Shown: piece after piece, positions 21,308 to 24,007 of the stretch | How positions within the stretch are numbered: position 1 is the first letter of the stretch | How the letters are laid out: the number at the start of each line of letters is the position of its first letter | Source: Lactobacillus sp. UBA5815 | GTDB taxonomy: Bacteria > Bacillota > Bacilli > Lactobacillales > Lactobacillaceae | NCBI GenBank assembly: GCA_002417825.1 | Contig: DICX01000058.1 | Coordinates: forward strand, 1-49,361 | Direction: 5' to 3' | DNA length: 49,361 nucleotides | Made by a program: the position numbers and the translations under genes | Notes under the pieces: generated by a model | What the model was told of the DNA's origin: nothing | Seen by the model: only the letters and a program-made list of their open reading frames with translations | Database searches by the model: none

Positions 21308-22231
21308 ATGAAACAAGGAACGACGATCATCACTTTGAATAATGGTTATCACCTTTGGACAAACACGCAAGGACAAGGCGATATTCACCTGCTGTGCCTG
21401 CACGGTGGACCTGGCGGTAATCATGAATATTGGGAAGACACGGCTGATCAGCTTGAAAAGCAGGGGCTTCACGTTCAAGTCCACATGTACGATCAATTAG
21501 GATCGCTTTATTCTGACCAACCTGATTATTCTGATCCTGATATCGCTAAAAAATATTTGACATATGACTATTTCTTGGAAGAGGTCGAAGAAGTCCGTCA
21601 AAAATTAGGGCTCGATCATTTCTATTTGATCGGTCAAAGCTGGGGCGGCTTGCTGGTCCAAGAATATGCGGTCAAATACGGCCAACACTTGAAAGGCGCC
21701 ATCATCTCTTCAATGGTCGATGAAATCGATGAATATGTTGCCAGCGTCAATGCACGCCGAAATGAAGTCCTCTCTTCTGAAGAAGTGGCTTTCATGAAAG
21801 ATTGCGAAGCACACAACGATTACGACAATGCACGCTATCAAAAAGACGTTCAAGTTTTGAACGTCAATTTCGTTGATCGTAAGCAACCTTCCAAACTGTA
21901 TCACTTGAAAGACATTGGTGGTTCCCAAGTCTATCATGCGTTCCAAGGTGACAATGAATTCGTGATCACTGGCAAACTCAAAAACTGGCATTTTCGCTCT
22001 CAACTGCCTAAGATCAAAGTCCCAACGCTATTGACGTTTGGCGAACACGAAACGATGCCGTTAGCCACCGCAAAAACAATGGCCGGCTTGATTCCAAACG
22101 CCAAATTGGTCACGACACCTGAAGGCGGTCATCACCATATGGTTGATAATCCAGATGTTTATTATCATCACTTGGCAGACTTCATTCGTGAAGTCGAAGC
22201 TGGAACTTTCAATTCACAGCCAACAAAATGA
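21308..22231 (+). CDS. pepR: Prolinase / proline-specific peptidase (S33)
   Basis: HGGPGG, GQSWGG and GGHHHM motifs; N-terminus typical of lactobacillus PepR. Confidence 0.9.
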   Translation: MKQGTTIITLNNGYHLWTNTQGQGDIHLLCLHGGPGGNHEYWEDTADQLEKQGLHVQVHMYDQLGSLYSDQPDYSDPDIAKKYLTYDYFLEEVEEVRQKLGLDHFYLIGQSWGGLLVQEYAVKYGQHLKGAIISSMVDEIDEYVASVNARRNEVLSSEEVAFMKDCEAHNDYDNARYQKDVQVLNVNFVDRKQPSKLYHLKDIGGSQVYHAFQGDNEFVITGKLKNWHFRSQLPKIKVPTLLTFGEHETMPLATAKTMAGLIPNAKLVTTPEGGHHHMVDNPDVYYHHLADFIREVEAGTFNSQPTK

Positions 22232-22235
22232 TGAT

Positions 22236-22273
22236 AAAAAAAGCTTTATGGCGTTTTGCCATAAAGCTTTTTT
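22236..22273. terminator. Bidirectional intrinsic terminator (pepR/efp)
   Basis: AAAAAAAGCTTTATGGC-gttt-TGCCATAAAGCTTTTTT. Confidence 0.9.
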
Positions 22274-22283
22274 GCTTGTCACT

Positions 22284-22844
22284 TTAAGCTCTTGATTTGT
22301 AAGTGCCCTCTGCCGTATTGATGATCAAAGTATCCCCGACATTAATGAAGTCAGGAACGGTCACGACCAATCCTGTCTCCATCGTTGCGGGCTTGCCACC
22401 ACCTGCTGCCGTCGCACCCTTGATCTCTGGCTGCGTTTGGGTGACTTTCATCGTCACCGTTGCAGGCAATTCGATACCGATCAATTCCCCATCATCTGTA
22501 AATTCCAATTGAACTTCGATGTTAGGAATCAAATAATTCCGTTCATCTTCAATTTGGTCACGGCTGACTTCATATTGTTCATAAGTCGTGGTGTCCATGA
22601 AATAATAAGTTTCATTTTCGTTATACAGATACTGAGCTTCTTTTTTAGCGACATCGACCAGATCGACTTTTTCACTTGGACGCATCGTCTTGTGAACGAC
22701 AGCGCCGCTACGAACGTCACGTAAATCCATCTGCATCACTGTGTTGCCTTTGCCAGGCTTGTGATGATTAGACGCTAAAACGCGGATCAACTTACCGTCT
22801 TGTGTGAAAATCATACCTTTTTTCAAATCTATTGCTTGTACCAT
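22284..22844 (-). CDS. efp: Translation elongation factor P
   Basis: HKPGKG loop, YFMDTTTYEQ and KPATMETGLVVTVPDFI. Confidence 0.95.
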   Translation of the reverse strand: MVQAIDLKKGMIFTQDGKLIRVLASNHHKPGKGNTVMQMDLRDVRSGAVVHKTMRPSEKVDLVDVAKKEAQYLYNENETYYFMDTTTYEQYEVSRDQIEDERNYLIPNIEVQLEFTDDGELIGIELPATVTMKVTQTQPEIKGATAAGGGKPATMETGLVVTVPDFINVGDTLIINTAEGTYKSRA

Positions 22845-22848
22845 GCCA

Positions 22849-22935
22849 TCAACCTCTTCTTTTTTTGTTTATTTCGACCAACTCATCAACAACAAAAAAA
22901 GATGGTGGCAGTGCGAACCCTCTGACCAAAATCAT
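22849..22935 (-). CDS. Putative efp leader peptide containing Pro-Pro (28 aa, MILVRGFALPPSFFVVDELVEINKKRRG)
   Basis: SD AAAGGAG 6 nt before ATG 22935. CCA CCA at 22908-22903. Its last codons overlap the efp SD, and its stop ends 4 nt before the efp ATG. Confidence 0.7.
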   Translation of the reverse strand: MILVRGFALPPSFFVVDELVEINKKRRG

Positions 22936-22961
22936 GTCGTTCTCCTTTACACATCGTTTCA

Positions 22962-22990
22962 AGTATACCGAAAAACTAGTCGCGACGCAA
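22962..22990 (-). promoter_or_regulatory. Sigma-A promoter for leader-efp
   Basis: TTGCGT-N17-TATACT on the minus strand, overlapping the coaA 3' end. Confidence 0.55.
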
Positions 22991-23896
22991 AGCGATCGCA
23001 TCGACATGATGATTTTGGGCTTTATGCAAGATCAGATTGGCACGTGATTTCGTCGGTGCGATGTTCTCACGCAAGTTGACCAAATTTGTCATTTGCCACG
23101 TCTCCCGAGCCAAGCGTAAAGCGTGTTCACGTGGCCCGTTTGCCCACTCATAGTAAAAATTATCCGGATGGTTTTTATTTAGATCAAGCAGCTTTTCGAA
23201 ACGGTGCATGAACCACGTTTCAATCAAATCTTCATCTGCATCCAAATAGATCGAAAAATCAAAGAAATCGGAAGCGATGACATCGTGTTTAGCCGAAAGT
23301 TGCAACACATTGATCCCTTCGATGATCAGCAGATCAGGTCTTTCAACATGCCCATAAGCATTCGGAACGATATCTGACAAGGCTTGCGAATACAATGGAT
23401 AAACGACGTCCGGCTTGCCACGCTTGACATCTGTCAAAAATGAAGCTAAAAGTGACATGTCATACGATTCAGGAAATCCTTTGCGATCCATGAGGCGCTG
23501 CCGCTTCAATTCTCGATTTGGATATAAAAAACCATCCGTCGTCATCAGTGCGACCTTCAAATCCGGGTAAGCCCGTTGCAACAGCAGTTGAAGCAATCGT
23601 GCTGTCGTCGATTTTCCGACCGCGACAGACCCCGTGATACTGATGATGAACGGCGCAGGTGATTCCTGAGTCTTATGCAGAAAAGCAGCTTGCTTTTGCT
23701 GAAGTTCACGTTTCTGATGAAACGAGAGCATCAAATAACGGACGAGCGGTGCATAGACTTCGCGGACATCGTCTAAATCCACACGATCGCCTAATGATGC
23801 GACCTTTTGGAGCTCATCTGCCATGATTTCGGGCTGATCTGCGGTCAGCTTTGCCCATTCAACACGTTTGATCGTTTTAAAAAGCGTCATTTGCAT
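22976..23896 (-). CDS. coaA: Type I pantothenate kinase
   Basis: GSVAVGKSTTAR, TTDGFL, RKGFPESYD and IIEGINVLQ. Confidence 0.95.
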   Translation of the reverse strand: MQMTLFKTIKRVEWAKLTADQPEIMADELQKVASLGDRVDLDDVREVYAPLVRYLMLSFHQKRELQQKQAAFLHKTQESPAPFIISITGSVAVGKSTTARLLQLLLQRAYPDLKVALMTTDGFLYPNRELKRQRLMDRKGFPESYDMSLLASFLTDVKRGKPDVVYPLYSQALSDIVPNAYGHVERPDLLIIEGINVLQLSAKHDVIASDFFDFSIYLDADEDLIETWFMHRFEKLLDLNKNHPDNFYYEWANGPREHALRLARETWQMTNLVNLRENIAPTKSRANLILHKAQNHHVDAIALRRD

Positions 23897-24007
23897 TCCT
23901 TCAATCTACTCTCACTAATTTCACTTCTCGTTTTGTTCCCTGTGTTCTGGCTTGACGTCTTACATGATTCAAGACTATTCTTAACGATTAAGAAAGGATG
24001 ATCGATT

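Follow-up and report, generated by a model that had tools for sequence, protein, structure and literature searches.

An efp gene preceded by a short open reading frame with two adjacent proline codons raises the question of whether a ribosome translating this uORF controls the gene behind it and what such a control would sense. We analyzed this locus in the window, the whole stretch of 49,361 nucleotides of contig DICX01000058.1 from Lactobacillus sp. UBA5815, and in its relatives. The answer that we prefer, with a probability of roughly two in three, is that the Pro-Pro (PP) leader is a translational attenuator, in which low EF-P activity would cause a pause at PP, the pause would free the RBS, and a spare efp gene (efp2) would be turned on.

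The leader in the window

The preliminary description of this DNA had placed on the minus strand a promoter, a Shine-Dalgarno (SD) sequence, a 28-codon ORF containing CCA-CCA, and a gap of 4 nt between the stop of this ORF and the efp ATG (22844), and all of them are found there base for base. It had overlooked that the efp gene of the window is the second of two and that there is an out-of-frame ATG at 22954. The features of the region are the following:

22962..22990, minus strand: candidate sigma-A promoter, from sequence (-35 TTGCGT at 22990-22985, N17, -10 TATACT at 22967-22962)
22942..22948, minus strand: Shine-Dalgarno AAAGGAG of the uORF, from sequence
22849..22935, minus strand: leader uORF of 28 codons, MILVRGFALPPSFFVVDELVEINKKRRG (ATG at 22935, TGA at 22851-22849), conserved only as far as PP
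22903..22917, minus strand: core F-A-L-P-P, with CCA-CCA (22908-22903) as the predicted pause site
22891..22902, minus strand: 5' arm of a 12-bp stem, within the footprint of a ribosome at PP
22858..22869, minus strand: 3' arm of this stem, immediately next to the efp SD
22853..22857, minus strand: Shine-Dalgarno AGAGG of efp, predicted to be partly paired when the switch is off
22284..22844, minus strand: efp2, coding for an HHKPGKGN-type EF-P of 186 aa (TIGR00038, 221 bits versus a cut-off of 185.8)
22886..22954, minus strand: out-of-frame ORF of 22 codons, no PP, with its stop inside the hairpin
22236..22275, minus strand: hairpin with A- and T-tracts located 3' of efp, seen in the sequence and absent from the scan listing
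22976..23896, minus strand: coaA (type I pantothenate kinase, TIGR00554 over the cut-off), upstream neighbor
21308-22231, plus strand: proline iminopeptidase-family gene, convergent with efp2

The candidate promoter matches the consensus at only 8 of 12 positions and stays under the threshold of the promoter/terminator scan; its -35 box overlaps the 3' end of coaA, as well as a weak terminator-like scan match at 23000-22981. The leader itself is a hybrid, with an SD-led start and RGFAL head as in Ligilactobacillus and a short LPP tail as in Lactobacillus. The ATG of the out-of-frame ORF (22954) is located 7 nt past the -10 box, where relatives have their leaderless start. If the ribosome slipped by -1 on the U-run that follows PP (22900-22894), it would enter the frame of this second ORF and end at its stop, an arrangement that is not kept in relatives. 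A contig from a second study spans 22799-22997 with one differing letter and no gaps (run X4, depth 2), which rules out an assembly artefact as the source of the leader; two other runs, X5 and X6, gave no coverage of it. No Rfam covariance-model match was found over 22842-22990 (scan of 22000-24000, E up to 5). The hairpin downstream from efp2 is likely a bidirectional terminator common to this gene and the convergent proline iminopeptidase gene. A peptidase gene adjoins both EF-P genes of this genome, as efp1 also follows one.

Distribution and coding conservation of the Pro-Pro uORF

We fetched 233 loci, of which 181 were distinct (duplicates and L097, with masked bases, were dropped before counting), and considered as a PP uORF any ATG-led ORF with adjacent Pro codons located 40 to 115 nt before the efp start. 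Loci and genomes are designated below by L and G numbers, and some genera by code labels (g19, g25, g35, etc.). A PP uORF was found upstream of the HHKPGKGN-type efp in 77 of the 181 distinct loci versus about 3 expected from dinucleotide shuffles, counts that overstate the case because kin are not independent. It is mostly located 52 to 70 nt before the efp2 start, and 76 of the 77 belong to six genera of Lactobacillaceae. Conservation of the uORF and of its prolines had been proposed beforehand as a refuting test; both are conserved, and under coding selection, in these six genera. The frequency of the leader is uneven, from 34 of 72 loci in Lactobacillus (FALPP) and 5 of 11 in g19 (mostly FSIPPN) to 15 of 19 in g25 (PLPPP, LPPPW) and all of the loci in Liquorilactobacillus (13/13) and g37 (3/3), both with FAL-xxx-PP. 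In Ligilactobacillus, where SD-like starts also precede the leaders, it was found in 6 of 8 loci, or 8 of 8 with two longer leaders beyond the range of the rule. Genera with efp2 as the sole copy showed it in 1 of 16 loci (g35) and 0 of 3 (g26), and there were no PP uORFs in the loci of g22, g26, g28, g41, g47, and g48.

As a background, 8 of the 549 genes of the window's genome, efp2 included, have a PP uORF under this rule. The leader is restricted to the second efp. Before efp1, the strict rule detected none in 20 loci and a looser rule detected 2; 36 efp2 loci of other families contained no ATG-led PP uORF at -115 to -40, with 3 scattered matches in 30 loci under the looser rule. The uORF peptides are unannotated, as none of the four tested was present in a collection of 15 billion proteins.

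Having two efp copies does not require a leader, because many two-copy genomes are without it (38 of the 72 Lactobacillus loci all loci of g22, g28, g41, g47, and g48, and, under the strict rule, all 30 loci from other families). Among the 38 leaderless Lactobacillus loci, 20 have a -10 box and a short UTR, and the other 18 lack a -10 box within 70 nt, with coaA mostly abutting efp. In the johnsonii/iners group (L010, L016-L024, and L084-L095 in part), the efp2 SD overlaps the stop codon of coaA, neither a promoter nor a leader separates the two genes, and we read efp2 there as joined to the coaA operon. In an unrooted FastTree tree of EF-P2, g35 is nested in the leader-bearing clade, and the leader label changes 17 times.

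Several single loci depart from these patterns. L139 (G271), from a single-efp genome, carries an unrelated GPPG uORF that begins 102 nt before efp, shortly after a -10 box, and ends 12 nt before it, and in its sister L140 the PP is missing. In L066 (Lactobacillus bombicola), the leader has decayed, with an early stop, a change from PP to PL, and a TTG start for efp. Some g19 loci (L198 and L200-L203) have an SD-led uORF coding for MSPGPA or MSPGA, with no adjacent prolines and some 75 to 80 nt before efp2, possibly a variant in which the pause is caused by something other than PP. L080, on a contig titled Faecalicatena absiana, is a Lactobacillus-type coaA-efp2 locus and probably reflects contamination or mislabelling.

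The pattern of substitutions indicates that the leader uORF is under purifying selection at the codon level. In-frame pN/pS was 0.099/0.592 for the Lactobacillus leaders and 0.119/0.751 for the FAL-xxx-PP group, i.e., 0.16 to 0.17, compared with 0.63 to 6 in the shifted frames and 0.077/0.712 for efp itself. The residues A, L, P, and P are invariant in the 34 same-genus leaders, with free third codon positions. Same-genus leaders have a TATA[A/C]T hexamer at the corresponding position (33 of 33), and in all 33 the uORF ATG is located only 6 to 7 nt after this -10 box, which points to a leaderless mRNA in these relatives. Beyond PP, the peptide is unconserved, and the stop lies anywhere from 4 to 97 nt before efp.

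In Lactobacillus, peptide conservation extends 11 codons upstream of PP, which could also be explained if FAL(xxx)PP were an arrest peptide, either ligand dependent or refractory to EF-P (responding to Mg2+, a polyamine, an antibiotic, or ribosome stress), that opens the efp2 RBS. There are precedents in the published accounts of RAPP/RGPP arrest, described as refractory to EF-P (PMC12992588), and of MgtL, described as responding to Mg2+ (PMC12856214). However, the RAPP/RGPP motif is absent from all 77 leader peptides, the position preceding PP is occupied by L, A, S, I, V, G, or P, and at least four peptide types have only PP in common, so that we consider this explanation very unlikely.

The presence of a third or fourth Pro in several leader types (FALPQAPP, PLPPP) bears on the main rival to our reading, namely, the same switch with another input, in which the leader would sense a shortage of prolyl-tRNA (proline starvation) more than EF-P. 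The halt of a starved ribosome would fall on the same codons, with the same opening of the RNA, the leader of Salmonella mgtA is reported to stall under proline limitation (PMC5021804), and the convergent neighbor in the window is a proline iminopeptidase gene. We nevertheless regard it as unlikely: the regulated gene codes for EF-P and is not a proline supply gene, the conserved F-A-L suggests nascent-peptide context over codon counting, and genomes with efp2 as the sole copy hardly ever carry the leader. The Pro codons are also adjacent in 77 of 77 leaders, although adjacency was required by the search.

Predicted pairing at the efp2 RBS

The preliminary description had proposed a 12-bp stem abutting the efp SD that the Pro codons could extend over the SD and start. 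The arms, 22902-22891 and 22869-22858, are indeed complementary at 12 of 12 positions, the stem is present in both MFE and centroid folds, and the Leu-Pro-Pro codons extend it by pairing over AGAGG and the efp AUG. The efp SD of the window pairs to the footprint region with a probability of 0.49. The whole 151-nt region folds no better than its shuffles (z of -0.17); the stem region alone reached z values of -2.2 and -2.9 (7 and 2 of 200 shuffles), for regions that were picked post hoc.

We defined the opening cost of the RBS as the energy to unpair positions -16 to +12 around the efp AUG, and a 27-nt mask stood for a ribosome whose P site holds the first Pro. For the window, this cost went from 13.6 kcal/mol unmasked to 3.4 kcal/mol with the PP mask, and sliding the mask along the uORF gave the lowest cost with the P site on codons 8 to 14, around P10-P11. 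The median drop was 3.6 kcal/mol for the 77 leaders versus 0.07 for a mock mask in the 104 leaderless loci. It exceeded 1 kcal/mol in 28 of 34 Lactobacillus loci (the other 6 dropped by 1 kcal/mol or less), 6 of 6 Ligilactobacillus, 13 of 13 Liquorilactobacillus, and 3 of 3 g37, but in only 4 of 15 g25 and 3 of 5 g19 loci. In single-sequence folds of the window and of most g1, g37, g40, and g46 leaders, but mostly not in those of g25, the pairing predicted to hide the RBS overlaps the PP footprint.

Since the CC of Pro codons pairs with the GG of any SD, the matched null kept the PP codons and the SD-start region fixed, and the rest was shuffled (14 times for each leader and 40 for the window). 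The real value was larger than the null mean in 38 of 42 leaders, hand-chosen from the 77, and in 26 no more than 10% of the shuffles reached the real value. For the window, it was 6.9 versus 1.6 ± 3.0 in the null, with 2 of 40 shuffles reaching 6.9. Synonymous resampling, a weak discriminator, left the real value above the null mean in 31 of 45 leaders, and 16% of 25 draws reached that of the window. In folding with and without a footprint, as suggested in the preliminary description, a mask at PP lowers the predicted opening cost beyond matched nulls in most leaders of four genera. The folding model predicts that codons around and after PP bury the SD and start and that a footprint at this place releases them.

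What did not hold up was a conserved, covarying stem. RNAalifold runs on 28 and 22 leaders gave no consensus structure, and no compensatory pair was found among five close g46 leaders, so a conserved RNA motif was rejected; L002 and L035 differ by one compensatory pair. The 12-bp stem of the window is species specific, and the Ligilactobacillus leaders L092, L098, L101, and L102 have long stems of unrelated sequence that run from PP to the SD (z of -2.2 to -5.6). Given that there is no consensus and yet most leaders bury the RBS, what recurs is the position and effect of the pairing and not its sequence. We gave less weight to the idea that F-A-L is conserved merely to pair with efp codons 3 to 5 (mean probability of about 0.5 in g1): the third codon positions are free to vary, and three loci have L in place of F with no matching change.

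The position of the stop codon is relevant for translational coupling, which had been offered as an alternative. Here, ribosomes finishing the uORF would melt the stem and restart on efp, and the PP pause would lower efp2 expression (a positive feedback), or the uORF would set a basal level. The window fits this picture well, with its stop 4 nt from the efp AUG, a uORF SD stronger than that of efp, and masks on the last codons that cover the RBS. This near-abutting stop is, however, a peculiarity of the window locus: a stop within 5 nt of efp was found in only 2 of 76 leaders, and the remaining 74 end 13 to 97 nt upstream, at sites that are not conserved. This excludes coupling as the conserved function, and its chances as a general explanation are slim. 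In the window itself, the uORF crosses the SD and ends 4 nt before the efp AUG, so some coupled basal expression is probable. In the folding model, a footprint at the stop of the out-of-frame ORF also opens the window RBS (from 11.7 to 3.8 kcal/mol), and coupling and this ORF together may keep efp2 of the window on regardless or blur the switch.

The leaders of g25 mostly do not fit RBS release. L175, L178, and L181-L191 share a longer conserved leader, MFIFF...HAL(I/V)(M/V)PLPPP, whose folding misfits this model, and a two-ribosome mask does not rescue the g25 leaders. Such misfits would be accommodated if the pause acted on transcription or mRNA stability (by terminator choice, Rho access, or cleavage near stalled ribosomes) and not on initiation. 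The mgtA and mgtC leaders are described as working through transcription (PMC5021804), and Rae1 is reported to cut upstream of PP-stalled ribosomes in Bacillus subtilis without EF-P (10.1101/2025.06.04.657793). On the other hand, a terminator-like site was present in 1 of 77 leaders, rho was not found in 3 of 5 leader genomes (including both from Lactobacillus), and the U-run of the window is the 5' arm of the stem, with no strong hairpin before it. The scarcity of terminator-like sites and of rho, both of them sequence tests, disfavors transcription attenuation, and we see RNA-level control as a whole as highly improbable.

Two EF-P types and a possible role for the leader

The genome of the window has two efp genes whose products are 49% identical. 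The other one (efp1, G000:C78:13175-13738) codes for an EF-P with the loop QHVKPGKGSAF versus HHKPGKGNT in the EF-P of the window (EF-P2), and it follows a peptidase gene, apparently in what we take to be the usual pepQ-efp-asp23-nusB order. Of 401 genomes of the family, 140 were found to have the HHKPGKGN type, spread over 13 of 40 genera, and the nearest named relatives of the window locus belong to Lactobacillus, followed by Ligilactobacillus and Liquorilactobacillus. EF-P2 is the only EF-P in the g35 (9/9) and g26 (3/3) genomes tested, and this type also occurs alone in many of the streptococcal- and enterococcal-like genomes searched. The coexistence of two EF-P-like factors, one of them supporting, recalls the EF-P and EfpL pair of Gammaproteobacteria. 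Unlike EfpL (YeiP), EF-P2 has Lys and not Arg at the loop tip, scores below the cut-off of the EfpL model (144 versus 264 for TIGR02178), and is found alone in many genomes. Its loop also ends in PGKGN versus the P-G-K-G-P of the unmodified PGKGP-type EF-P, as defined in PMC11388002.

The two types differ in their association with YmfI, described as the enzyme of the final step of 5-aminopentanolylation in B. subtilis (PMC5885033). In a set of 80 genomes, YmfI matches over the cut-off were present in 43 of the 45 with both types, including that of the window (C65; G000:C65:1447-2157), in 1 of 4 with only efp1, and in 0 of 31 with only efp2; of the other two genomes with both types, one has a match just under the cut-off and one has none. 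YmfI is thus linked to EF-P1, and EF-P2 fails the co-occurrence expected of an EF-P of the Lysine-YmfI (5-aminopentanolylated) type. Because YmfI tracks the EF-P1 type and is missing from all 31 efp2-only genomes, we infer from gene content that it acts for EF-P1 and is dispensable for EF-P2. EF-P2 would then work without YmfI-type 5-aminopentanolylation and could cover for an under-modified EF-P1.

Along these lines, the attenuator would work as follows. With plentiful EF-P, the ribosome on the leader would pass PP fast and the RBS would refold shut. If EF-P were short, the ribosome would pause at PP and hold the 5' strand of the stem, allowing repeated initiation on efp2, and the product, which has no PP in its own sequence, would relieve the pause and close the loop. 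Translation of the uORF, an EF-P-relieved pause at L-P-P-S, and induction of efp2 are steps that we infer from the established function of EF-P. The negative feedback by EF-P proposed in the preliminary description is supported as a reading, although not as simple self-regulation of an only efp: since the target is the second paralog, the loop would track the overall activity of EF-P and turn on the spare copy. More tentatively, and at somewhat less than even odds, the leader may be part of an EF-P homeostat, in which the capacity to translate polyproline is sensed on PP and the YmfI-independent second EF-P is induced when the 5-aminopentanol-modified one is short. Such a device of the Lactobacillaceae would have been rebuilt on unrelated stems and on four or more types of peptide, and given up in the lineage that lost the modified EF-P and YmfI.

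Elements of this design are found in well-known systems. The prfB gene is autoregulated by a frameshift inside the gene, so that the activity of a translation factor is read on its own mRNA, and the eukaryotic AZIN1 PPW uORF is read through eIF5A, although it controls polyamine synthesis and not the factor. Both are similar to the PP leader in that the activity of a factor is read on an mRNA element on which the factor acts. ErmCL is, like SecM and MifM, a leader-peptide translational attenuator, and MifM turns on a spare paralog if the main one runs short, the same logic as proposed here. In the descriptions of SecM-SecA of Escherichia coli (PMC12856214) and of MifM, which controls YidC2 in B. 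subtilis (PMC4423224), a stalled leader ribosome exposes the downstream RBS as in our proposal. In contrast to both, the PP leader has no signal or membrane segment, involves no pulling force, and is only 10 to 30 codons long, and EF-P would be both the release factor and the target. The Salmonella leaders MgtP (mgtCBR) and MgtL (mgtA) are short Pro-containing uORFs too, and low EF-P is reported to cause stalling at the consecutive Pro codons of mgtP and to turn on the downstream gene (PMC5021804, citing Nam et al.). Their target is the transcription of genes for Mg2+ transport and virulence (through Rho or the choice between stem-loops), whereas the predicted output of the PP leader is translation initiation of efp. 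The RAPP/RGPP peptides (ApdA, ApdP, CruR, and kin) are uORFs with a C-terminal di-proline that control the next gene; they are described as needing Arg-Ala/Gly before PP, resisting EF-P, and mostly carrying localisation signals (PMC12992588). By analogy, the best reading is that the PP leader works as an attenuator of the SecM/MifM type with an MgtP-like input and EF-P as its target.

The presence of two efp copies in some lactobacilli was noted by Sieber et al. in 2024, who speculated that the second is transcriptionally regulated by need (PMC11611912). In the main text of the mostly open-access literature searched (including PMC13602936, PMC13041419, PMC10987492, PMC12931083, and 10.1101/2023.09.18.558224), we found no leader on efp and no feedback control of this gene by ribosome pausing, in agreement with the preliminary description, which was aware of no such case for efp. 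Two reviews from 2026 gave no match to Lactobacill- in their body text and none to an efp leader. Material relevant to this novelty may be present in the supplements of PMC12992588 (uORF lists) and in the EF-P tables of PMC11611912 and PMC11388002. The leader makes the reason for having two lactobacillar EF-Ps directly testable and, if the proposal is true, would offer a natural sensor with which to follow EF-P activity in living Gram-positive cells. The analysis also points to an uncharacterised and widespread EF-P type that seems not to need YmfI. As for individual genomes, the most divergent efp1 (G018:C11:105042-105587) comes from a two-type genome with no YmfI match and may be decaying, G492 has three efp matches, and G606 carries two identical efp2 copies with identical upstream sequence on C1 and C2 (L256 and L283).
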